In this document: positions 1,454 to 46,049 of the stretch, piece after piece
Numbering within the stretch: position 1 is the first letter of the stretch
Layout: each line of letters begins with the position of its first letter
Assembly: GCA_963662245.2 (NCBI GenBank)
Contig: CAXXVQ010000010.1
Span: forward strand, 4,613 to 68,612
Source: Paludibacteraceae bacterium
Lineage (GTDB): Bacteria > Bacteroidota > Bacteroidia > Bacteroidales > Paludibacteraceae
Length of the DNA: 64,000 bases
Direction of reading: 5' to 3'
Notes under the pieces: model-generated
The model's database searches: none
What the model was told of the DNA's origin: nothing
What the model saw: only the letters and a program-made list of their open reading frames with translations
Program-made: the position numbers and the translations under genes

Positions 1454-4348
1454 CTATCTGACAATAATTTTAGTAGAGTATTCGCAGGTTCTTCCTTTTA
1501 TTCTTAATATGTAACTACCATTAGGTAATGTCTTTTTTAGAGATATATTTAGAGCGTGAACTCCAGCCTCTAATAATCCAAAATCAGCTATAAATACTTG
1601 TTTACCTGACAAGTCTGTAATTAATAGATTTATTTGATCTGAGTTCTGTAAATTGAATAATACAGATGCATTATCAATAACCGGATTTGGACTTACAGAA
1701 ACTGAACTTATTTTAGCATTATCCGATCCACCTACAGTTGCATATTTGTATATTGTATTTTTACCTAAATCAATTGCAAAATTTACATTTGAAACTATTT
1801 CTCCATCTTGAATAGTCACATTGTAGCTTTCTGTTTGAGTAAATCCGATTCGTTCAAATAAGATTCCGTATGTTCCTGAAGGCAAGTTCCTGAAAGAGAA
1901 AGCTCCACTTGTATCCGGAGTTGTAGAAGCAATGATATTGCCGTAACTATCAGTTAAATAAATATTTACACTATAATTAGTGGTTGTATTTGCACTTCTC
2001 ATTGTTAATAATTCACCCACCGTTCCGGAAATAACCGCCTGACCGGTCATAATTACTGTAGAATTTTTTGATGCCAACAAGAAATTAATCGTAGTATCTG
2101 TTTCACAAGAAATATTAATTGGAGTGGTAGATAACCAACTTGTTGAACCATCATGATAAGTATCTACAAAAGGATTTTCACCACTAAAACTATAACTTAC
2201 AAAATGTGCTTTCAATAAGTATTCGCCGGCTGTAAGTGAGTCAAAGGTAGCAAACTGAGGAAGATTCTTAGTTTGATACAAGTCATAATTGCCATTGTCA
2301 TTTTTCTTGTATAACTGACCCTGAACATCATTGCTTCCAGTCATTCCTCCTTGCAAGAAAGAAGCATTGATTTTACCGTATCCAAATTGAACATTAACAG
2401 AATCAAGTGTTATGCAAGCTCCATTGCTAATGTGTACATAATATGTTCCGGCTTGAGTTATTTTTCTAATGTTTTCATGAGTTTCACCTTCAAGAAGGCT
2501 CCATAGGTAAGTGTTTTCAGGCGAACCTGCATTTACGCTTACTGTATCTCCTAAACAGCCATGTACAATACCTTTAGGAAGAATCATTGGTGCCGGCTCT
2601 TTTACACTTATGTTAATTGTATCCTTAATGCTGCCTAATGTATTTGTCAGTGTAACTATATACTCCCCGCTATTTTTCACTACAATTGATGAACTTGTTT
2701 CTCCTGTATTCCAGCTATATGACATACCAATACCTGCTTTAGGTTTAAGAGTTACTGAATCTCCCTGACAAATTGTTTTATCATCACCTAATGCGTTTTT
2801 TGTAAGAGCTTCATCTGCAAATTCAATAGTGAATTTTGTGATACTACCCTCAAAACTTGTAAAGTTCAAAGAGTCCAGTTTCTTTTCTAGGGTGTTTGAT
2901 AATTGGAAGAATCGGCTTGAAAGTCCATATTCTCCGCCAATTCCTGGATAAATTGTGTTTTCAAAATATCGATAATCAACTGTATCATTTTGAGCTTTAA
3001 TTATTGCCATAACCGGACAATTATTTCCAGTCATAAGACCTTTTATTGTATATATTGTAGAATCAAACGCAGATAAATCTACTTGTAATCCTTTTAGAGC
3101 AGGATATGAAATTAATGCAGCTATAGAATCTTCATTAAAAGTTATTGTATCACCGTCAAATAAATTGTATTCACGATGTAGCTTCATTGGTATATCTTTT
3201 ATTTTAAAATCAAAATAACCAACGGTATGCATTGCTGTATCTCCATAAACATCAACTTTTTCTTGGTTATTTGTAACCCATTTAAGGTTTTCTTTTTTAT
3301 CTGTTTCAAAATTGATGTTTAATGTGTTTCTAATTGCTGCTGTAGAGAATGGAATAACAATGTCATCATCTTTTGGCCAAGGGTTATTATTCTCATCTGT
3401 TAAAAAACCAACAGGAATAGTTAGAATATACTTGCTTGATGGCGATAAATACGACTCTAAATCAAAGCTAACTTCGTTTTTATATACTTGAATTTTACTT
3501 ACTGAAATGCCAACAGTAAAGTTATTTGCAGGGCACTGAAGAGTAAGTCCTGATTTTACTTCTACTGTTTCATTAAATGTGAAAGAAGCAACTGAGATTA
3601 AAGAAATTCCTGTTTGATTCTCAACCGGAAAGCTTTTTTCAAGCTCCGGAGAAACTGAATCAGGTGCTAATATCGAAAAATTACCTGATTGAGAATAGGT
3701 GCTTGAACCATACTTGTTGTAATTAGAGTTATAACTAAGATTTTTACGAGTTAAATATGGAGAACCGCTTTGATTCCCTCTATATTTATAATCTCTTGCT
3801 ACTTTTTGGCTAACTTCGAAGTACAATGAATCCATTTCGACTACAGTAAAGTCAGTTTTTGATAAACCCGGAGGAATATCAGAATATCCGGAGTAGGAGC
3901 CTTCATAATTTTTTTCGCGCATCCAACCAAAGGTAGTTACGAAAGTGGTGTCATTTGATGATGATACTTGAAATACAGTAATGTGTTCACCTATATAACC
4001 TGTTGTATAAAGCTTTATGGAACTTGAACTTCCCGCTGTTTTAACAAAGTTGGAATTGTTATAGGTAGGAATAATTGTTCCTGCGGTTATGTTTTCAGGA
4101 GCTGTAAATTTATAAATTCCATCAGAACCCGTTGAAGTGTCAAAACCACCGAGAGATTGTTTATAGAAATAATCAGTGAAGAAAAATTCTGTACCGGCTT
4201 GAATATCTACTAAAGGTACGAAGTCAATGCAATGACTGGTATAATTTACCTGTGCGATAGCAATATCACCGGCTTTTAAGACCGTTTGGGACTGAACTAT
4301 TGAGACATAACTCAATAATAATACAAGATTGATAAATAGTTTTTTCAT
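1454..4348 (-). CDS. large secreted protein with T9SS C-terminal sorting domain
   Basis: 964 aa. N-terminal signal peptide, Ig-like repeat segments (CQGDSVTL, CLGDTVSV), and a C-terminal SPNPV...GSYILRI sorting-domain pattern. Confidence 0.7.
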   Translation of the reverse strand: MKKLFINLVLLLSYVSIVQSQTVLKAGDIAIAQVNYTSHCIDFVPLVDIQAGTEFFFTDYFYKQSLGGFDTSTGSDGIYKFTAPENITAGTIIPTYNNSNFVKTAGSSSSIKLYTTGYIGEHITVFQVSSSNDTTFVTTFGWMREKNYEGSYSGYSDIPPGLSKTDFTVVEMDSLYFEVSQKVARDYKYRGNQSGSPYLTRKNLSYNSNYNKYGSSTYSQSGNFSILAPDSVSPELEKSFPVENQTGISLISVASFTFNETVEVKSGLTLQCPANNFTVGISVSKIQVYKNEVSFDLESYLSPSSKYILTIPVGFLTDENNNPWPKDDDIVIPFSTAAIRNTLNINFETDKKENLKWVTNNQEKVDVYGDTAMHTVGYFDFKIKDIPMKLHREYNLFDGDTITFNEDSIAALISYPALKGLQVDLSAFDSTIYTIKGLMTGNNCPVMAIIKAQNDTVDYRYFENTIYPGIGGEYGLSSRFFQLSNTLEKKLDSLNFTSFEGSITKFTIEFADEALTKNALGDDKTICQGDSVTLKPKAGIGMSYSWNTGETSSSIVVKNSGEYIVTLTNTLGSIKDTINISVKEPAPMILPKGIVHGCLGDTVSVNAGSPENTYLWSLLEGETHENIRKITQAGTYYVHISNGACITLDSVNVQFGYGKINASFLQGGMTGSNDVQGQLYKKNDNGNYDLYQTKNLPQFATFDSLTAGEYLLKAHFVSYSFSGENPFVDTYHDGSTSWLSTTPINISCETDTTINFLLASKNSTVIMTGQAVISGTVGELLTMRSANTTTNYSVNIYLTDSYGNIIASTTPDTSGAFSFRNLPSGTYGILFERIGFTQTESYNVTIQDGEIVSNVNFAIDLGKNTIYKYATVGGSDNAKISSVSVSPNPVIDNASVLFNLQNSDQINLLITDLSGKQVFIADFGLLEAGVHALNISLKKTLPNGSYILRIKGRTCEYSTKIIVR

Positions 4349-5941: not shown

Positions 5942-7516
5942 TTATTCGTCTTTCGCTTTTTGAGTTTTAAAACGACGAGCATCAATATCATATTTCTTTA
6001 ATCTAATACCCATCATTCTCTCTGTTATACCCATTTTCTCAGCAGCTTTAGTAATATTACCTTTTGTGCTGATTAAGCTATCTTGAATAATTTGTTTCTC
6101 TAATTTACCAAGTATTGTTTCCAATGTGCCTTGAGCTGCTGAATTTGATGAAACTGCATTTTGTAGAGTAGGAGGTAAATCATGTGAACGGATTACCCCA
6201 TCTTGACTCAAAATACAAGCACGCTCCATACAGTTTTCAAGCTCACGAATATTACCGGGCCAGTGATACACCATAAGCATATCAATTGCTGATGCAGAAA
6301 TGCGTTTGATGTTTTTACCATGCTTTTCGTTGAACTTTTCTACAAAGTGATCAGCTAACGCCGGAATATCATTGATACGCTCACGAAGAGATGGTACAAA
6401 GATTGGGAAAACATTGATTCGATAATATAAATCCTCGCGAAAGTGATCTTCTTTAATTAAATCCTCTAAATTGCGATTTGTAGCACAAATAACTCGAACA
6501 TCAACCTTTACCGGAGTAGAACTACCTAGGCGTTCAATTTCTCGTTGTTGTAATACACGAAGAAGTTTTACCTGAACTGGTGCAGGCACATCTCCAACCT
6601 CATCTAAGAATATTGTCCCTCCATTAGCAGCTTCAAAACGACCAATGCGTTGCGATGCAGCACCCGTAAAGGCTCCTTTTTCGTGACCAAATAACTCGCT
6701 TTCAATCAAACTTTCTGGCAATGCTGCACAGTTTACTTTGATAAAAGGCTTACCTTTTCGTAGACTGTTAAAGTGAATAGCTTCAGCAACCAATTCTTTA
6801 CCAACACCACTTTCACCTCTAATAAGTACTGTAGCATCAGTAGGGCTTACGCTTTCAATCAATGAAAACACTTCTTGCATTTTGCTAGAGTTCCCCTTTA
6901 TATTTGACGGAACAATGCGCTCCTTAAGGTTATTTTTAAGTGCGCGGTTTTCTTCGCGTAGAGTTGCTAGTTCTTCAATATTTTCTTGAATACGACGAAC
7001 AGCACGACCAATCATTGACCCTATGATGTATAATAATCGTTCATCATTGGCAAAGTTTAAACTTTGACGATATGTTTTGTGTAAACTTACCGTTCCAAGT
7101 ACTTCATATTTATAACGAATAGGAACACATATAAATGACACATCTTCTTTATCAATTTTTAGAGGTGCATTCGTTTTGTTTTTAAATCCAGGTGAAGCAG
7201 ATGTCTTGGGAACAACAACAGCTTCTCTAGTTTCAACAACGCGACCGATTATACCTTCACCTAACTTATAAGTAATATTCTTAATATCATCAAGATCAAT
7301 TCCATAAGTAGCTTCAAAATGAATAGTATCATTAGAACGATTGTGTGTAGTAAGTAGGATTCGTTCTGCGCCTAAGTGTTTACCCACCAAGTCCATAACC
7401 AATTGCAGGTTAATGTTTTTTTCAAATAGTGCATTACTGATTTCTAGTAACAGGTTTAATTCCCGCTTTCCGTAACAATCAGAATAAGCATCGCAATGTC
7501 CTGTTTGTAAACTCAT
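5942..7516 (-). CDS. sigma-54-dependent transcriptional activator, GAF-AAA+-Fis HTH (NifA-like)
   Basis: GESGVGKE Walker [16 protein letters not shown] (GAFTGA) motif, C-terminal Fis-type HTH, N-terminal GAF-sized domain, and a C-x4-C (NCMERAC) near the end of the AAA+ domain. It neighbours Mo and nif genes. Confidence 0.75.
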
Positions 7517-37681: not shown

Positions 37682-38173
37682 TTAAAATTGTTGTTCGTGA
37701 CAGTGTATGTGTGTTACTTCTTCGCCTGTTTTAGCTTCAACTACCTGTATTAAGGCTTTTATTACTGGGTCAAAGAGTTCGCTGTGTATCGGAATATCTA
37801 CATTAAATAAGCCTAATTGACCTTTTACAGGGAACGGATTTTGAAGCATTCTAGGGTTTTCGTAGACATACGCCCATTTGCCTTGTTCGTACTTGCAGAA
37901 TGCTTTTTGTTCATCCTGTTCGGTCATTGGTCGGCAATCTTTAAGTGTTGCAATACCTATTGCATGCCCTTTGTGCTTGTATAGGAAGTCTTTGTTAGTG
38001 CCTAGTTCGTCTATTAAGCCTTTTGGCTCAATTTCCCACAGCCATACTTCTTTGAGTGATGCGCAAATAAGAACATCGCCCCTAAATTGTGTTGCTTTGC
38101 TTCTTATTTCAAGCGTTTTAAAGCCTCGCACGATTAACTGTGCATAAGGATTTTTAATTGATTGTGCTTTCAT
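37682..38173 (-). CDS. ASCH/PUA-like domain protein
   Basis: N-terminal NPYAQLIVRGFKTLEIRS pattern. Moderate recognition only. Confidence 0.45.
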   Translation of the reverse strand: MKAQSIKNPYAQLIVRGFKTLEIRSKATQFRGDVLICASLKEVWLWEIEPKGLIDELGTNKDFLYKHKGHAIGIATLKDCRPMTEQDEQKAFCKYEQGKWAYVYENPRMLQNPFPVKGQLGLFNVDIPIHSELFDPVIKALIQVVEAKTGEEVTHIHCHEQQF

Positions 38174-39389: not shown

Positions 39390-39493
39390 TGTTTTGCTTA
39401 AAAATGCTCGTTGCTAAAGCTTTGGTGCGAACCTCACGAGCCGTGTTGCTATTATTTCTGATTGACATACTTGCTATGTGCAGTTTCGAGAAA

Positions 39494-39540
39494 TTGTCCC
39501 TATGGGCGGAATCGAACCGCCCACTTTGAACCGTTTAGGG
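39494..39540 (-). ncRNA. tRNA-like acceptor/T-arm minihelix
   Basis: Minus strand reads CCCTAAA-CGGTTCAAAGT-GGCGG-TTCGATT-CCGCC-CATAGGG-A-CAA. It has a T-loop consensus and 5 acceptor base pairs, and begins 2 nt after the stop at 39543. Confidence 0.4.
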
Positions 39541-39542
39541 TG

Positions 39543-40004
39543 TTAGTTTTCAACAGGTGCGACACCTTCTAGTGGCACATAGTTGTAAACATCTAGGATG
39601 TTTGTTTCTGTAAGTGTTGCCACTTCATAGTCGGCCATTGTGGTTTTTAAGCCTTTAAGTAAGTTATCTAAACCTGTTTTAAAGTCTTCAGCTTTTACCC
39701 ACATGTTGCTAGGCACTTTCTTTTCTACGCCTTTTTCTTCGTCGAGGCTCACGAATAGAACCTTGGCTCGATACCATTTGTCGGCATTAGCGTCTTCACT
39801 GTCGAACATCTCTGCGATGCGAACTCGTTTAACTCTCGAAATCAAGAAGTCGCCATTGATGAAAGGCTTCATTTCTTGCGTAATGCGAGCCTCGGCTTCG
39901 GTAAATGACATAGCATCCACCAAATAGGCCTCACTTGTGGTGATGATAATACCATCATCGCCTGTTTTGTCATACTTAATATGACATTCGAACCAACTGA
40001 ACAT
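39543..40004 (-). CDS. DUF4494-family protein
   Basis: WFECHIKYDKT..., YLVDAMSFTEAEARITQEM, ADKWYRAKV and TMADYEVATLTETNILDVY match the Bacteroidota DUF4494 pattern as I recall it. Confidence 0.55.
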   Translation of the reverse strand: MFSWFECHIKYDKTGDDGIIITTSEAYLVDAMSFTEAEARITQEMKPFINGDFLISRVKRVRIAEMFDSEDANADKWYRAKVLFVSLDEEKGVEKKVPSNMWVKAEDFKTGLDNLLKGLKTTMADYEVATLTETNILDVYNYVPLEGVAPVEN

Positions 40005-40048
40005 AAGCTTTTGTTTTAAGTGTTTATTAATAAAGAAAATACAATCTT

Positions 40049-40094
40049 TTGCTCCTAAGAGGGGAATCGAACCCCTCTAAAAAACCGTTTAGGA
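40049..40094 (-). ncRNA. tRNA-like acceptor/T-arm minihelix
   Basis: Minus strand reads TCCTAAA-CGGTTTTTTAG-AGGGG-TTCGATT-CCCCT-CTTAGGA-G-CAA. It begins immediately after the stop at 40095. Confidence 0.4.
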
Positions 40095-40757
40095 TTAGGC
40101 GTTTGACATGCTAAGGTTAATCCAAACATCTTTGCCATCGACTTTCATTTTGGCTTTGATGAAAGTGCTTGTTTTTTCGGGTCTGTAAGCCTCTTTGATA
40201 AGTCCAACGGCTTCCATCAGCTCAGTGTCTCCCGATTGTTCGGCTTGATTGTGAAGCTCTAGAACTCGCTGTGCTTTTGGCATACCTTCTTTGTTTGGTT
40301 TAAGCAAGTCTCGCACGATATTGGCCATCAACTGATTTTCGGGTGTGATTTGTTTCAGTATCCAATTGTTTACTTTTGCCACTCCCGAGGCTGCTAAGTC
40401 TTTGTCCCAACCGTCTACAATATTATGCCCGATGATGATTGTTTTTGAGTAGTCTAGGTTGCTTATTGAGTGGCTTTGTTGTGATTCAAATTCGTCATCT
40501 GATATTCCATAGACTTGCTTTTTAATCTCCATCAAATCCTTCGAGCCATTGTATAAGTTGGATTTGATAAGGCCTAAAATTCGTTCGGTACTCAATAATC
40601 GAGGGAAGTTCTTAGCGATGAACTCATCCTGTAGTGTGCGATAAGTCTTTTTGTCCTCTTGTTTCTTCTGTTTTTCTTGCTTTTCTTCAGCTGCAAGTTT
40701 TGATTTTAGCTCTGCTTTCTCTTTTGCAGATAACTTTGAATAATCGAAATTTTCCAT
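40095..40757 (-). CDS. DUF3164-family protein (Mu-like phage early protein)
   Basis: The C-terminal pattern LLKPNKEGMPKAQRVLELHN...EAVGLIKEAYRPEKTSTFIKAKMK resembles DUF3164 of Mu-like phages. It lies downstream of the B-like gene. Confidence 0.5.
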   Translation of the reverse strand: MENFDYSKLSAKEKAELKSKLAAEEKQEKQKKQEDKKTYRTLQDEFIAKNFPRLLSTERILGLIKSNLYNGSKDLMEIKKQVYGISDDEFESQQSHSISNLDYSKTIIIGHNIVDGWDKDLAASGVAKVNNWILKQITPENQLMANIVRDLLKPNKEGMPKAQRVLELHNQAEQSGDTELMEAVGLIKEAYRPEKTSTFIKAKMKVDGKDVWINLSMSNA

Positions 40758-41166: not shown

Positions 41167-41645
41167 TAATTGAGTTTTGAGAGTGTTTCTATTTGTTGTT
41201 TTTCTTCTAAATCTTTAGCAAGTATGCTTTCCATTTTGCGGATGAATGATTTCATTTCATCGTCTGTCATGTTGTACATGCGTTTTCCTGCTATTTTGGG
41301 GTTTTCTAGGAATCGGTTCACGCAGTTCCAATCTGTTGTGTCTATGCCATGCTTTTGCAACCGTTTAAGTATTCCGCTGCGTAGCTTTCTTGTTTCATCG
41401 CTTACGGCTTGTTTGCCAGCCTTAGAACTTGGTTTTGCTGCCTGTTTTGCTGCTGGGAACTTTTGTTCTAAGTCGATTAGCATGGCTGTGTATGCACTTG
41501 GGTTCTTTTCTTTAAACTCATTTAAAGAAGTGGTTAGTTTGTTGGAATAGTCCCAAATGATGTCCTCTTTATCCGCTCCAACCATGCGAGCAAACACTGC
41601 ATAGAATCGAGCGTGTGGTGATGACTTTCTTTGTCTAGGCTGCAT
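41166..41645 (-). CDS. hypothetical early protein (possibly Mu gp16/GemA-like)
   Basis: 159 aa, positioned after the B-like ATPase. The family assignment is weak. Confidence 0.35.
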   Translation of the reverse strand: MQPRQRKSSPHARFYAVFARMVGADKEDIIWDYSNKLTTSLNEFKEKNPSAYTAMLIDLEQKFPAAKQAAKPSSKAGKQAVSDETRKLRSGILKRLQKHGIDTTDWNCVNRFLENPKIAGKRMYNMTDDEMKSFIRKMESILAKDLEEKQQIETLSKLN

Positions 41646-42561
41646 TGTGTTTAATTTTTAAGCGTTCTGATTTAACTAGGCGTTTGATACGACGAATATC
41701 TTCTACTACCGAAACACTTTGACCACCTTCTAATGTTATGCGTGAAGGCATACAAGCGTCGAAAATGCGTTTTTGAGTGTCTTTGTCTGCTACTCCGTTT
41801 ACTTCACAAATCTTGCGAGTGTCTGATAGTGTTGCTCCAACTAAATGGATGTATGTACGCCCAAAACGGCTGTCGAACTCATCATATCCTGGTTTATTAA
41901 GGCGAACGCCTCTTTTAATCTCATACTCTAGGTTTTCAGTGCCTAGAATAACCAAACCTAGGATATCTTCACACTCGTTAAATAAGTGAATGAATGTGCG
42001 CAATGCTGATGGTTTTAAGCTGTTTGCTTGGTCTACAACAAGTAGTGGTTTGGTGTGTACCGTTTTTTTGAATGTTTCGGCAATGCATTCTATTAATGCA
42101 TTTACAGAGGCATATCCTTTTGGCGTTTCAGCTCCGATTTCACGAGCAACTTCGTATAAGAAATTGCGTCCGCTCCACTCTTTACAGTTGATTTTGTACA
42201 CTCCATGTCGACGGAAATTGTTTAAAAATGCATTGCTGGTTGCTGTTTTTCCGCTTCCTGCTTTGTGAGCCACACCCATAAACATGCTTTCAGCTTTTGC
42301 ATCGGTAAGCACATCGGTAATGATGGTGTAATTTGTTATTTCCGCAATATTCCAATTGCCACTGTCAAAGTCATAACCAAGTGTGATGGCTATTTTCTTC
42401 AAGATTTCATCTTCATCAGCACCGTAATTTCCTTTGCGTAGCAATGAGATAGCCGTTTCGCTTATGCCACATTTTTTGGCAACTGCACGGTAAGAGCTTA
42501 GGCGTTCTTTTTCTTCGTCTATAAGCTCTAGGATGTCGTGTTTTTGTTGTTGACTTAGCAT
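41635..42561 (-). CDS. MuB-like AAA+ transposition ATPase
   Basis: N-terminal HTH (AKKCGISETAISLLRKG), Walker A GSGKT, Walker B LLVVDQ. It lies directly downstream of the transposase gene. Confidence 0.75.
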   Translation of the reverse strand: MLSQQQKHDILELIDEEKERLSSYRAVAKKCGISETAISLLRKGNYGADEDEILKKIAITLGYDFDSGNWNIAEITNYTIITDVLTDAKAESMFMGVAHKAGSGKTATSNAFLNNFRRHGVYKINCKEWSGRNFLYEVAREIGAETPKGYASVNALIECIAETFKKTVHTKPLLVVDQANSLKPSALRTFIHLFNECEDILGLVILGTENLEYEIKRGVRLNKPGYDEFDSRFGRTYIHLVGATLSDTRKICEVNGVADKDTQKRIFDACMPSRITLEGGQSVSVVEDIRRIKRLVKSERLKIKHNAA

Positions 42562-42585: not shown

Positions 42586-44559
42586 TTAATATTGATTTCG
42601 TATGTTAACCTTAATGTTTTCACCCTCGTCGTCCCATTCGCTGTGAAGGAATGCTGTTTCGCTGGCTTCGTATTGTTTTTTAGGAACTCTACCAGTTAGC
42701 AGTATGCCAGTTTCTTGGCTTATTTCTTCGGGTTCTGCCTCCGCTTGCATTATCTCTGCTAGGCGTTTTTTGCGATGATTGTCCATTTTTTCGCCTATGG
42801 ATTTCATTTTGCCTACGGCTCTCATGTCTTTTTTCGGACCATATTGTTGAGCCTCGATAATTCGACTAAATGTGCCCAGGTACTTTGCGCCATCATAGAG
42901 ATGTACTTTGTCTAAATCTTCTATATCAAAGCAGTTCCAAAGCTTTATTCCTGTGTATTTTTCGGCTATATCACAATCGTCTATGCCATAATAGTAAATA
43001 GCATTGTCTATTTGTGTTTGAATCATGTAGTTTCGTATTGAAACCTCTTTTCTAAGCCCAAATAGATACGCCCATTGATGGCCATTAATAGCTTTTGTGT
43101 TGGGCTTGGTGCAATCGAAATGCAGTTGCATTGGCGATTTGTCTATGAGTCGGTACTTGGTACTCCAATCGCAATAAGGTGTGCGTATGTAGTTGTCTAG
43201 TATCTTATCTGTTTCACGAATGGCATCGTCGAAGTTGAAGCCGTTTTTTGCTGCCCATTGGCGCATCTTAATCACATACTCTTTTGCTCTATGAGCGTAC
43301 TTGCGTGATGATTTTACACCCTCACCATAGTACAAATCGCTTTCTGCCATAAACACGGTTTGGAGTGTGCCCCACCAACGCTCTATGCGCCCTTTACCCT
43401 CGGGCTTAACGGTTTGTGTCATGGTTACACCCTCGTGTCTAAGTGTACTTTCGAGCCACATCCAGTCTGAAGTGTTGTGACCAGGAAAGCGGTCATATCT
43501 TAGTTCGTAAGGAAGATATCCAGTGTTTCTAACGGCCATTGCAATGGCGTTCATTACAGCATCGGCACTTTCTTCATAGCAATATTCCCAACCAAGTGGC
43601 AAACCGCTCATTACATCACGCACAGCGATAATGTAAAGGAACTTTTGAGAGGTAACACGCTTGCCTTCTTTGTTTAATACAGTGGCACGGTGGTCTATGA
43701 TATTGACACGAGTACCATCTATGTCCCAACAATCGCCAGCATAAAGAGCCGCAGCGGTTGGCGTATAGCTTCTGTATTTGTTATTGAAACGGCTGCGCTC
43801 TCCGTAGCGTTGTTGTATTAAGAATTGTGTTTCAGGTTTCGCCATAAAGTCGCTAACCCAGCGTTGCGATGGTATTTTGTCTAATCCGTGTTGTAGGCAG
43901 GTTGTGCGCAACTTGCGATATATGAATGAAGCTGTATAATTGCGTTGGCTATGACCTAGGTCGAATAGCCAGTTCAGCATCATGTCGTTGTTTGTGAATA
44001 GTGAGCGGTTTTCGTTTCCTTTGTTTTTAGCATACACCAATTCGTTTATCGGTGTGCCATCTGCATAGGCTTTAATCTTATCTCTAAGGTTTCTCCAGCT
44101 TACAGGCAGGTACTTTAAACCTTGTAGATCGATTTCCTTGCCCAGCTCATCAAAGAATTGGCTTTTGCTGTATGAAATGCCGTTGTTTTGAATGTAAACA
44201 AAGGCTTCGTGCACAACTGCAGCTGCTTTGGCTTCATCTTCATTCATGCCCTTTAAAAATGCTTTAAAGCCTCTGTAAATTGCATTTGCCACGATGTCAA
44301 CAATATAATTTCGTACTTCAACGGCACGCAATTGAAGTGTGCCTGGCTCGTCTAGCTTTACCGTAGTGGAACTAGGTAAGCTTGAGTAGCTGAAGTAACA
44401 GCGATTGGCAATAATCTCGTGCTTCCACGATTCTCCGCCTTTCTTAGCTCTCGATTTTGCTACTCTCAGATAGTCGGCCTTTACAGCCTCCTTTTTTATG
44501 AGGTAGTCTTGTGAAAGCCACAAGCTGTTGTTGTATAGTATAATATCGTTGTTTGTCAT
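42586..44559 (-). CDS. MuA-like DDE transposase
   Basis: 657 aa. Candidate D, D, E residues lie in the CWDIDGT, RYDRFPGHNTSDW and GKGRIERWW contexts (retroviral-integrase-like core). It is paired with the B-like ATPase. Confidence 0.85.
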   Translation of the reverse strand: MTNNDIILYNNSLWLSQDYLIKKEAVKADYLRVAKSRAKKGGESWKHEIIANRCYFSYSSLPSSTTVKLDEPGTLQLRAVEVRNYIVDIVANAIYRGFKAFLKGMNEDEAKAAAVVHEAFVYIQNNGISYSKSQFFDELGKEIDLQGLKYLPVSWRNLRDKIKAYADGTPINELVYAKNKGNENRSLFTNNDMMLNWLFDLGHSQRNYTASFIYRKLRTTCLQHGLDKIPSQRWVSDFMAKPETQFLIQQRYGERSRFNNKYRSYTPTAAALYAGDCWDIDGTRVNIIDHRATVLNKEGKRVTSQKFLYIIAVRDVMSGLPLGWEYCYEESADAVMNAIAMAVRNTGYLPYELRYDRFPGHNTSDWMWLESTLRHEGVTMTQTVKPEGKGRIERWWGTLQTVFMAESDLYYGEGVKSSRKYAHRAKEYVIKMRQWAAKNGFNFDDAIRETDKILDNYIRTPYCDWSTKYRLIDKSPMQLHFDCTKPNTKAINGHQWAYLFGLRKEVSIRNYMIQTQIDNAIYYYGIDDCDIAEKYTGIKLWNCFDIEDLDKVHLYDGAKYLGTFSRIIEAQQYGPKKDMRAVGKMKSIGEKMDNHRKKRLAEIMQAEAEPEEISQETGILLTGRVPKKQYEASETAFLHSEWDDEGENIKVNIRNQY

Positions 44560-44571
44560 TGAGTTGTGTGT

Positions 44572-44664
44572 TGGTGGTCGGTGGGAGAATCGAACTCCCT
44601 CTTAGGGTGGTAGAAATTGCTGCCTGAGTCAACAATACCTTGTGCGCCTTTACACTACCCGACC
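44572..44664 (-). ncRNA. 93-nt tRNA-like RNA with encoded CCA (non-canonical middle)
   Basis: Minus strand reads GGTCGGG...GGGAG-TTCGATT-CTCCC-ACCGACC-A-CCA. It has a 4-bp D-like stem and a central 6-bp helix with the 7-nt loop ACTCAGG. Confidence 0.45.
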
Positions 44665-45008: not shown

Positions 45009-45527
45009 TTAGTTTATTTGGTTAGTATAAAACTCGATAAGCGATGCAAGGCGGTTGCGCACTCGACTGCTTTCTATTTTTACAATTTCACGGTAAGCAA
45101 GTATTTGGAAGGTAGAGCCTAGCTCTTGGTTGTCTGCTGGATGATATTCTAGCAGAGGGCTCTTTTTGCGTGGTTTTTCCATCTCTCGCAGTATCACTTT
45201 CTCTGCCCAGTTGCGAAACATCTTGGCATTATTGCTCTTTATAAAGAAGCCTAGGCGAATAATTCCTGCTTTTGTCCAATAGATTTGATGTGGTTGGAAG
45301 TTCTTTTGAAGGGTGTCAGTATTTCTGACACCCTTTGCTGTAGCGGTTAAAAAGTGTTCACCTTCAATAAGTTCATCAGCGTTTGCTCGTTTATGCTCTC
45401 TAATAGTTCCTTCTTTTACGCCATATCCTTTGGCTACATCAGCCGTAGGCATAAGGAACTCATACGATAGGTTGGGTATCACCGATACCTCCAAGCCATC
45501 TGCGATTTGTAATTTTAATTGTCTCAT
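45009..45527 (-). CDS. phage DNA-binding regulatory protein (Bro-N/KilA-N-like)
   Basis: Start moved to the ATG at 45527, because the longer ORF would cross the divergent promoter. WTKAGIIRLGFFIKSNNAKMFRNWAEKVI resembles Bro-N/ORF6N-type domains. Confidence 0.45.
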   Translation of the reverse strand: MRQLKLQIADGLEVSVIPNLSYEFLMPTADVAKGYGVKEGTIREHKRANADELIEGEHFLTATAKGVRNTDTLQKNFQPHQIYWTKAGIIRLGFFIKSNNAKMFRNWAEKVILREMEKPRKKSPLLEYHPADNQELGSTFQILAYREIVKIESSRVRNRLASLIEFYTNQIN

Positions 45528-45638
45528 ATACTTGTTTTGTTTAAAGTGTGTATATTTGTTTCGCTGTTCAAATGAACAACGATGCAAATATAGAAAATAT
45601 ATTTTCGATAAAACGAATGAAACGAAAATTAATTTACG
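45528..45638. promoter_or_regulatory. divergent early/repressor control region with a palindromic operator candidate
   Basis: Perfect palindrome TGTTCA-AA-TGAACA at 45565-45578, and tandem AAACGAA repeats at about 45610-45630. Confidence 0.4.
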
Positions 45639-46049
45639 ATGATTAAAGAAAGAATTATTCAAATAATTGAATATAAAGGCATTCCGAAAGAAAAGTTTTA
45701 TCAAAAGATAGGCATGACATCAGCTAATTTTAGGGGAGAAGCTAAGAGTAGACCACTAAATTCAAATGCAATCGAAAATATATTATCGGAAATACCTGAT
45801 TTAAATATCGAATGGCTCATAACAGGCAAAGGCAGCATGTTACAAGATATGGAGGTGCAAAAACCTCCTGATAAGATGGATGAAACGCCCACTATGTTGG
45901 CTATGATGGACAGGATACAGGAGCTTACCATTGAACTCTACGAGGCTAAAAAAGAGATAAGTAGGCTACAAAAAGAAAAAAAGGCTACGAAAACTCCTAG
46001 TTATGGTATTGCAGCCGAACCTGAATTGAAAACATTAAAACACAAATAG
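45639..46049 (+). CDS. phage repressor-like HTH protein
   Basis: N-terminal HTH plus the EWLITGKGSM motif common in Bacteroidota phage repressors, with a C-terminal coiled coil. It is divergent from the early operon. Confidence 0.6.
   Translation: MIKERIIQIIEYKGIPKEKFYQKIGMTSANFRGEAKSRPLNSNAIENILSEIPDLNIEWLITGKGSMLQDMEVQKPPDKMDETPTMLAMMDRIQELTIELYEAKKEISRLQKEKKATKTPSYGIAAEPELKTLKHK

Follow-up and report, generated by a model that had tools for sequence, protein, structure and literature searches.

Structures shaped like transfer RNA (tRNA) that mark the borders of longer transcripts are known from several systems, among which the t-elements of plant mitochondria are the closest precedent for the subject of this study. 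They are non-tRNA structures in messenger RNAs (mRNAs); they combine the T-arm motif GGTTCRANYCC with an acceptor-like stem; they lie at gene borders, some of them overlapping the 3' end of a reading frame; and they are thought, and have partly been shown, to direct the ribonuclease (RNase) P and RNase Z cuts that make mRNA 5' and 3' ends and free a small RNA (Forner et al. 2007, PMC1920247). Here we describe two elements, E1 and E2, on the minus strand of a 64,000-nucleotide (nt) stretch of a Paludibacteraceae genome (contig CAXXVQ010000010.1; the whole stretch is hereafter the window), where they lie in the early operon of a Mu-like transposable prophage. E1 and E2 also carry the GGTTCRANYCC motif and a covariation-backed fold of acceptor stem and T arm, and they are intergenic and co-oriented with the genes around them. 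t-elements differ in being organellar, heterogeneous and built as degenerate cloverleaves, whereas the phage elements are compact and uniform at ~45 nt, have a D-loop-like linker and a stack of 5+7 or 6+6 layers, occur in multiple copies within phage operons, and are described here from their sequence.

tRNA punctuation, as in animal mitochondria or the co-transcribed tRNAs of bacteria and phages, likewise places tRNA-shaped units between cistrons on the same strand, and in relatives of this prophage a genuine tRNA-Asn sits exactly where others have a minihelix; the phage units, however, have no anticodon arm, cannot decode, and look like signals in their own right, not tRNAs with a double use. 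In the case of MALAT1 mascRNA and MEN-beta, cutting by RNase P and RNase Z defines the end of a long RNA and frees a small CCA-tailed RNA. There, too, a tRNA-like structure resides inside a longer transcript, but it is eukaryotic, full and cloverleaf-like, and present as a single copy at the 3' end and not between cistrons. The tRNA-like domain of transfer-messenger RNA (tmRNA) has an acceptor stem, a T arm, a reduced D loop and no anticodon arm; its two strands are joined across a body of ~300 nt with a tag open reading frame (ORF), and it has a G3:U70 pair and an encoded or added CCA for alanylation, whereas in E1 and E2 the pair is C3:G70, a tag is absent and the linker runs continuously over 9-13 nt. 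The RNase P model hairpins of McClain, Guerrier-Takada and Altman resemble our elements in being a single coaxial hairpin of acceptor stem, T stem and T loop, and bacterial RNase P cleaves them at the canonical site (reviewed in PMC11143913); they are synthetic, end in 3' NCCA and lack a D-loop mimic, whereas the phage elements end in NCAA and bulge an extra 9-13-nt linker from the 5' strand. Rfam has no family for these elements, and a literature search found no description of them. tRNA-like processing signals are a known kind; a compact elbow minihelix repeated between the cistrons of a phage operon is apparently undescribed.

Anatomy and conservation of the elements

E1 (46 nt; 40049-40094, minus strand) and E2 (47 nt; 39494-39540, minus strand) are mimics of the top half of a tRNA. 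Read in the sense direction, E1 consists of the 5' strand of an acceptor-like stem, TCCTA (40094-40090); a D-loop-like linker, AACGGTT (40089-40083); a spacer, TTTT (40082-40079); a T stem of AGAGGGG (40078-40072) paired with CCCCTCT (40064-40058) around the T loop TTCGATT (40071-40065); the 3' acceptor strand, TAGGA (40057-40053); the discriminator G (40052); and CAA (40051-40049). E2 has the same parts in the same order: CCCTA (39540-39536), the linker AACGGTT (39535-39529), the spacer CAAAG (39528-39524), a T stem of TGGGCGG (39523-39517) and CCGCCCA (39509-39503) around the loop TTCGATT (39516-39510), TAGGG (39502-39498), the discriminator A (39497) and CAA (39496-39494). The string GGTTCGATTCC is found in both. 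A first-pass annotation, made from the sequence alone, had described both elements as acceptor/T-arm minihelices lying 0 nt (E1) and 2 nt (E2) after stop codons; its sequences and minus-strand coordinates agree exactly with the window, and ORF ends at 40095 and 39543 confirm the spacing. It gave the T stem as 5 base pairs (bp), which is wrong: the stem has 7 bp in E1 and E2 and 6-7 bp across the family described below, and in the two elements it makes, with the 5-bp acceptor-like stem, a stack of 12 layers. The stack is split 5+7 here and 7+5 in tRNA; the total length is equal. The T loop is that of a textbook tRNA (T54 T55 C56 G57 A58 T T) with an invariant closing pair, G53-C61. A tRNA T arm is thus present, and a cloverleaf is not, 9-13 nt lying between the acceptor strand and the T stem.

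The evidence that carries this description comes from related sequences. We scanned IMG/VR with the pattern CTAAACGGTT-N(5-14)-GTTCGAWTC, which specifies no stem, and found the fold with both stems in 21 of 22 viral matches. A second, independent scan of the same database took its anchor from the 3' side alone (GTTCGATTC-N(5-9)-TAGGRRCAA), and the 5' linker of its members reads AAYGGTT; between them the two scans rule out discovery bias as the source of either the linker or the RCAA tail. In a MAFFT alignment of 32 sequences, E1 and E2 included, 98.6% of cells pair and nine of the 12 pairs show compensatory double changes, and the observed values were reached in none of 500 shuffles; structures shifted by 1-3 columns, in comparison, pair in only 41.5-54% of cells. 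The fold, which RNAalifold predicts on its own as well, runs from a 5-bp acceptor-like stem through the linker AAYGGTT to a T stem of 6-7 bp that closes on a TTCGATT loop. G-U pairs exceed A-C mismatches by 9 to 2, which fits folding of the sense strand. The proposal of a minihelix with a short linker in place of the D and anticodon arms is strongly backed by covariation, by the 12-nt ruler and by the D-loop-consensus linker described below.

A covariance model built from this alignment scores E1 at 64.2 bits (E 1.3e-13) and E2 at 66 bits (E 4.5e-14), values that are partly by construction because both elements sit in the training alignment. The next full-length match in the window reaches only 13.6 bits, and a partial match of 17.2 bits covers only the T arm of a 93-nt element discussed below. 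In a scan of one genome per GTDB species, every high-scoring member was from Bacteroidota. The close relatives, after deduplication, amount to 59 distinct instances (54 distinct sequences) in Bacteroidota prophages, and the counts of members given below refer to these 59 unless stated otherwise. The hosts in the GTDB scan include Dysgonomonas, Parabacteroides, Proteiniphilum, Limibacterium, Chryseobacterium, Halpernia, Paludibacteraceae, Prolixibacteraceae, Lentimicrobiaceae and Sphingobacteriales. Close members are present in the genomes of several cultured strains: Dysgonomonas sp. 521, Dysgonomonas sp. HGC4, Limibacterium fermenti me31 (NZ_CP159486.1), Chryseobacterium kimseyorum 09-1422, C. 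daeguense DSM 19388, Chryseobacterium sp. Leaf404 and Halpernia humi DSM 21580. Absence from related phages, which would have counted against the first-pass annotation, is thus not what is observed. BLAST searches with a 1-kb region, the MuA protein and two element sequences found no relative among 50,697 GenBank phage records. Judged by this comparison, E1 and E2 are genuine members of a large conserved family, and neither chance hairpins nor tRNA scars.

The 3' strand from the T loop to the discriminator is exactly 12 nt long in 51 of the 59, equal to tRNA positions 61-72, and is usually laid out as 5 bp, one G.A or Watson-Crick layer, and then 6 bp. The linker AAYGGTT fits the tRNA D-loop consensus A14-R15-Y16-G18-G19, and its two Gs are invariant even among members recovered by the 3'-anchored scan; we infer that they pair with the T loop and form a tRNA-like elbow. 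The acceptor stem reads TCCTA/TAGGA in 38 members. The tail is ACAA in 43, GCAA in 11 and another sequence in 5, and genuine tRNA genes of the same loci that do not encode CCA have the trailers G-CAA, A-CAA, A-CAA, G-CAA and G-CAG; in a Bacillota locus, by contrast, the tRNA gene encodes CCA.

T-stem sequences differ freely between phages (related loci are numbered with an L). Copies within one genome are identical or 1-3 substitutions apart, compensatory pairs included, in L058, L114, L116, L118 and L073, with full identity between L058 6262-6305 and 7692-7735 and between L114 2168-2213 and 7493-7538; such near-identity points to recent duplication or gene conversion. E2 (compared within window 39440-39620, minus strand) forms an island of 45/47 identity with a copy in L030 (2605-2785, minus strand), the two differences making up one compensatory pair. 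The flanks of the two copies are unalignable and the neighbouring genes differ; since the island is surrounded by unrelated sequence, the elements sit at mosaic junctions.

Within the window the elements are exceptional. Exactly three hairpins with a G-C-closed 5-bp stem and a TTCRANN loop occur in the 64 kb, against a mean of 0.37 after shuffling, and all three are on the minus strand in intergenic gaps of the early operon. The hairpin stability of the elements is -17 to -18.5 kcal/mol (z about -2.6). ARAGORN finds no tRNA and no tmRNA in the window, and a search of the whole window with Rfam at gathering thresholds gave nothing. In a 651-nt search the Rfam tRNA model RF00005 does not match E1 or E2 even at E<=10; at that threshold their sole Rfam matches are to the tmRNA T arm, at 12-13 bits (gathering 47), and the search also gave Plastid-ycf2 on the opposite strand at 19.8 bits (gathering 65.7).

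Several candidate identities were tried and rejected. A tmRNA tRNA-like domain does not fit a 3:70 pair that is C:G in 32 of 32 aligned sequences, a CAA tail and a tmRNA score of only 12 bits. An intrinsic terminator requires a GC hairpin followed by a U run; the tails of E1 and E2, which continue as CAAAAG and CAATTT, have none, and neither element coincides with a terminator-like site on the minus strand, as the first-pass annotation had held. The promoter reading was rejected along with the terminator reading. A Mu enhancer or transposase-binding DNA site is contradicted by stem sequences that vary freely while the pairing is kept. Antiterminators of the put type, found singly in an operon and devoid of a T loop, were likewise set aside.

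The family extends beyond these close relatives. A further IMG/VR scan with AACGGTT-N(3-12)-GGTTCGATTCC returned at least 120 loci, which were filtered for the fold and gave at least 100 distinct further minihelices. Among the 100 minihelices listed, the 3' strand is 12 nt long in 68 and 11 nt in 31, the downstream ATG is a median of 33 nt away, and same-strand ORF ends are adjacent to 80, with opposite-strand ends, the control, adjacent to 5; repeats of the REP or MITE-like kinds were rejected on this last contrast and on the retention of pairing by compensatory change. In total the samples taken hold at least 150 distinct instances. One subfamily, with TCCCA/TGGGA or TCCCG/CGGGA stems and an ACAA tail, is found in Mu-like phages with a MuA of only ~30% identity, which have 3-4 copies each and keep a copy after the PHROG-846 gene, and L196 has one upstream of the transposase gene as well. 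A second subfamily (GGCGT/ACGCC-T-TTT) occurs in contigs of 60-90 kb, and a third (GGCGC/GCGCC-A-CGA) is present 5-6 times in each locus. The GC-rich copies of this third group (L136 80-2650 and L191 2274-5760, both plus strand; L143; L194) use the 11-nt register, and within a few nt downstream of each lies another small hairpin, for example TCGC-N6-GCGA or TGACAC-N5-GTGTCA, which appears to covary as well. Two Lachnospiraceae prophages carry members with non-CAA tails: L068 100-141 (minus strand) and L071 1609-1652 (plus strand), from metagenome-assembled genomes, have the AACGGTT linker, a GGCTA/TAGYC stem and the tails T-TTT and T-ATC, and reside in a non-Mu prophage setting with RecE-like, sigma-factor and HNH genes. 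The tail sequence may track the host phylum. Because homologues of the window's early proteins occur in only 32 of the 114 new loci listed, the element is not confined to Mu-like phages. In L017 (1951-2031), a spurious 81-nt tRNA-Arg(GCG) called by ARAGORN is a 45-nt minihelix joined to upstream coding sequence. The family probably descends from a tRNA.

Placement in the early operon and exchange with tRNA genes

As a rule the elements begin a few nt from a stop codon, and their strand is always that of the flanking genes. In 55 of the 59 close relatives a same-strand ORF stops within -40 to +12 nt of the element start; the stop lies within -4 to +6 nt in 44, with exact abutment in 8. The next ATG is a median of 18 nt downstream, behind a spacer that is 44% A, and in 22 cases the downstream gene is transposase-sized (at least 580 amino acids). 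Mapping by tblastn revealed recurring sites directly 5' of the MuA gene, directly after the PHROG-846 gene, and before or after the DUF4494 gene; the commonest is just upstream of the transposase gene, and related phages have different intergenic sites occupied. A different arrangement is seen in L050, a 124-kb viral contig, where five minihelix-like elements (3755-4304, plus strand; 6-7-bp acceptor and 5-6-bp T stem) lie ~106-146 nt apart in a 630-nt non-coding gap between same-strand genes, the spacers holding AGTTTAGC-like repeats and a conserved GAAC ahead of each element.

The site upstream of the transposase gene is the most informative, as the phages compared there were sampled through MuA homology and not through the element. 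A minihelix lies 5' of the MuA gene in L107, L108, L109/L110, L112, L113 and L114. In L030/L120 the site holds a genuine tRNA-Asn(GUU) (L030 7252-7326, minus strand, the same as L120 592-666), with a G-CAA trailer and a distance of 13 nt to the transposase ATG. In L111 it holds a tRNA-Asn derivative of ~103 nt (~1862-1964) in which the acceptor, D and T arms are kept and the anticodon arm has been destroyed, unrelated sequence standing in its place; this copy, with its upper half intact, suggests how a tRNA gene may decay until only a processing element is left. Further tRNA-Asn(GUU) genes lie in the early operons of L061 (3290-3363) and L106 (1522-1595). L106 also has a variant minihelix in the gap after its PHROG-846 homologue (6908-6956, plus strand). 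Its acceptor has 7 bp with one mismatch and its T stem 5 bp; the linker is longer, and the tail is again A-CAA.

In the window, this site is filled by a 93-nt tRNA-like element (44572-44664, minus strand) that ends in ACCGACC-A-CCA 12 nt before the transposase ATG. RF00005 scores it at 30.6 bits over 44575-44664 (gathering 29), a score reached only in a local search. It has a cloverleaf-like fold (z = -2.6) with a 31-nt insertion in the anticodon arm, it encodes its CCA, it was missed by ARAGORN, and BLAST and nhmmer found no homologue of it in 106 related loci. What the occupants of the site have in common is little more than the upper half of a tRNA, and this half is what RNase P, RNase Z and the CCA-adding enzyme recognise (PMC4919913; PMC11143913). 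A functional tie between E1, E2 and the 93-nt element, suggested in the first-pass annotation, is supported by this exchange of minihelix, tRNA-Asn, degenerate tRNA-Asn and 93-nt element at one site.

The genes around the elements are those of a Mu-type early operon, all on the minus strand. A MuA-like transposase of 657 amino acids (42586-44559; PHROG 310, E 2.9e-35) belongs to the gene most often preceded by a minihelix in relatives, and a MuB-like AAA+ DNA transposition protein (41635-42561; PHROG 296, E 3.2e-32) is encoded in the stretch that the 93-nt element and E1 enclose. The TAA stop of a gene for 220 amino acids (40095-40757) abuts E1; this gene had been labelled DUF3164, and it has no match to that Pfam family even at E<=1 and belongs to PHROG 846 instead. 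The DUF4494 label of the next gene (39543-40004; 153 amino acids) was borne out (Pfam 2e-51). This gene is bracketed by the two elements, with E1 44 nt 5' of its ATG and E2 2 nt past its stop. As none of 13 viral loci found via DUF4494 homologues (47-56% identity) holds an element, the elements are not tied to this gene; an exact-protein look-up of its product found no contig, a PDB sequence search with it found no match, and a single-sequence AlphaFold2 model of it was unusable (pLDDT 37). From the transposase gene to the genes just past E2, the three largest intergenic gaps are the three with tRNA-like elements. The operon starts with a protein of 231 amino acids with weak ORF6N/Bro-N matches (45009-45704), and it also encodes a protein with an ASCH domain (37682-38173), a fold for which RNA binding is the usual prediction. 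Run on the early-operon proteins, PADLOC returned no match to defence or anti-defence systems that was convincing.

Putative processing signals and competing explanations

Our analysis moderately favours the reading of E1 and E2 as cis-acting RNase P/RNase Z processing signals in the polycistronic early mRNA of the prophage, which we hold to be somewhat better than an even guess. What the comparison itself supports is the sequence, the fold, the 12-nt ruler, the co-orientation, the placement, the interchange with tRNA, and a trailer common to CCA-less tRNA genes; all the enzymatic steps, and the effect on expression, are what we infer. RNase P, RNase Z and the CCA-adding enzyme measure along the acceptor/T stack from the elbow (PMC4919913), and hairpins of an acceptor stem and a T stem-loop are efficient RNase P substrates (PMC11143913). 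In the phage mRNA, the AAYGGTT linker could serve as a stemless D loop and build a tRNA elbow with the T loop; host RNase P would measure from this elbow and cut the 5' border just past the upstream stop codon, and RNase Z would cut 3' of the discriminator, ahead of CAA. The early mRNA would thereby be split into a segment of small regulators, a segment from the transposase and MuB genes to the PHROG-846 gene, the DUF4494 gene, and the downstream small genes, and each downstream segment would receive a short A-rich leader (median 18 nt) ahead of its ATG. A minihelix of ~43 nt would be freed, to which CCA could be added; an un-encoded CCA is added after RNase Z cleavage (PMC7479834).

Several observations weigh against processing signals of this kind. 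The base at N-1 is A in 37 of the 59 members, and not the U preferred by bacterial RNase P. Some RNase Z enzymes, such as that of B. subtilis, may disfavour a C at position 74. The acceptor stem and linker are more conserved in sequence than a pure distance ruler needs, and copies inside one genome are sometimes identical (L058, L114). In L106 there is no element directly 5' of the transposase gene—a tRNA-Asn lies 630 nt upstream instead—so an element is dispensable there. The five tandem copies in L050 have no genes between them, and mere punctuation does not explain them. Finally, in 11 of the 55 cases the stop of the upstream ORF is a TAA at element positions 4-6, so that an RNase P cut would yield a non-stop mRNA; the t-elements of plant ccmC and nad6 likewise reach into the 3' part of a coding sequence (PMC1920247). 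The conserved acceptor stem and linker, the L050 array and the stops inside elements are facts that point to an additional or alternative role of the released RNA.

The alternative that takes up these facts holds that the released minihelix is itself the functional product: a small CCA-tailed RNA that mimics the tRNA upper half in trans, perhaps as a decoy or competitor for host factors at tRNA acceptor ends or elbows, such as immunity toxins that modify or cleave tRNA 3' ends, or perhaps as a carrier dedicated to aminoacyl groups. Where it lies in the mRNA would then be a mere mode of expression. We consider this unlikely, although the acceptor stem, the discriminator (A or G) and the linker are conserved beyond what helix geometry needs, five copies are arrayed in the 630-nt non-coding gap of L050, some phages have 3-6 copies, the copies within L058, L114, L116 and L118 are near-identical, and phage tRNAs as such are known counter-defence tools (PMC11555353). 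A normal tRNA-Asn or a different tRNA-like element can, however, replace the minihelix, which argues for a generic upper-half function; tight co-oriented packing from stop to start is not needed by a trans-acting RNA; and most known tRNA-targeting defences attack the anticodon loop, which is absent here. The use of Gly-tRNA by Mu Mom (PMC13219725) is a loose lead only. Rather doubtful is the broader proposition that phages of several phyla carry widespread genes for such elbow minihelices, excised by RNase P and RNase Z, CCA-tailed and trans-acting; example roles would be to soak up immunity enzymes that attack tRNA acceptor ends or to carry aminoacyl groups.

Three further explanations were weighed. 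That the elements are structural spacers independent of tRNA enzymes, giving exonuclease protection, translational uncoupling or, in a host phylum without Shine-Dalgarno pairing, an unstructured leader for the next gene, agrees with stable hairpins of -17 to -18.5 kcal/mol sited between a stop and the next start with an A-rich spacer after them, and with their presence in the three largest gaps of that operon stretch; but a generic hairpin would keep neither an invariant tRNA T loop with G53-C61, nor a D-loop-like GG linker, nor an exact 12-nt ruler, and would not be interchangeable with a real tRNA gene, which makes this account quite improbable. A role at the DNA level, in which the 45-bp repeats are module boundaries for cassette-shuffling recombination or selfish MITE-like repeats, is in our judgement very improbable: the compensatory changes, the bias of G-U over A-C and the co-orientation indicate selection on a folded sense-strand RNA, and recombination at the repeats is more likely a by-product, even though E2 and the L030 copy are 45/47 identical between unrelated flanks and different neighbours, related phages have differing intergenic sites, the DUF4494 gene lies cassette-like between E1 and E2, and some genomes hold identical copies. 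The possibility, raised in the first-pass annotation, of a host tRNA 3' half carried passively did not hold, the elements having their own covarying 5' strand; an attachment (att) site or tRNA 3'-half scar was rejected on this strand, on the position inside the early operon and on the presence of Mu-type transposition genes. We give scarcely any credence to functionless remnants of host tRNA genes more generally, whether att scars or decayed phage tRNA genes. The L111 tRNA-Asn with its decayed anticodon arm and persisting remainder, and the recurrence of tRNA-Asn genes in these early operons, speak for such remnants, but 59 close and ~100 distant members keep the fold by compensatory changes and keep the 12-nt ruler, att scars have no 5' strand of their own, Mu-like phages transpose and do not integrate into tRNA genes, and ARAGORN finds no tRNA gene in the window.

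Implications for phage operons

The family is large, with at least 150 distinct instances, and reaches beyond Bacteroidota; with an Rfam model of it, phage intergenic regions would be better annotated and false tRNA calls avoided. For work on how tRNA enzymes recognise the elbow, the elements would also be a minimal substrate provided by nature, in which a stemless linker mimics the D loop. As Bacteroidota do without Shine-Dalgarno-led initiation, the effect of new 5' ends near start codons is directly testable in these hosts. If RNase P and RNase Z do cut at the elements, they would constitute a dedicated tRNA punctuation in bacterial viruses, of which we found no description: a 45-nt mimic of the upper half, and not a tRNA, would divide a single-promoter operon into mRNAs of separate fate, including that of the transposase, the driver of Mu-type replication.

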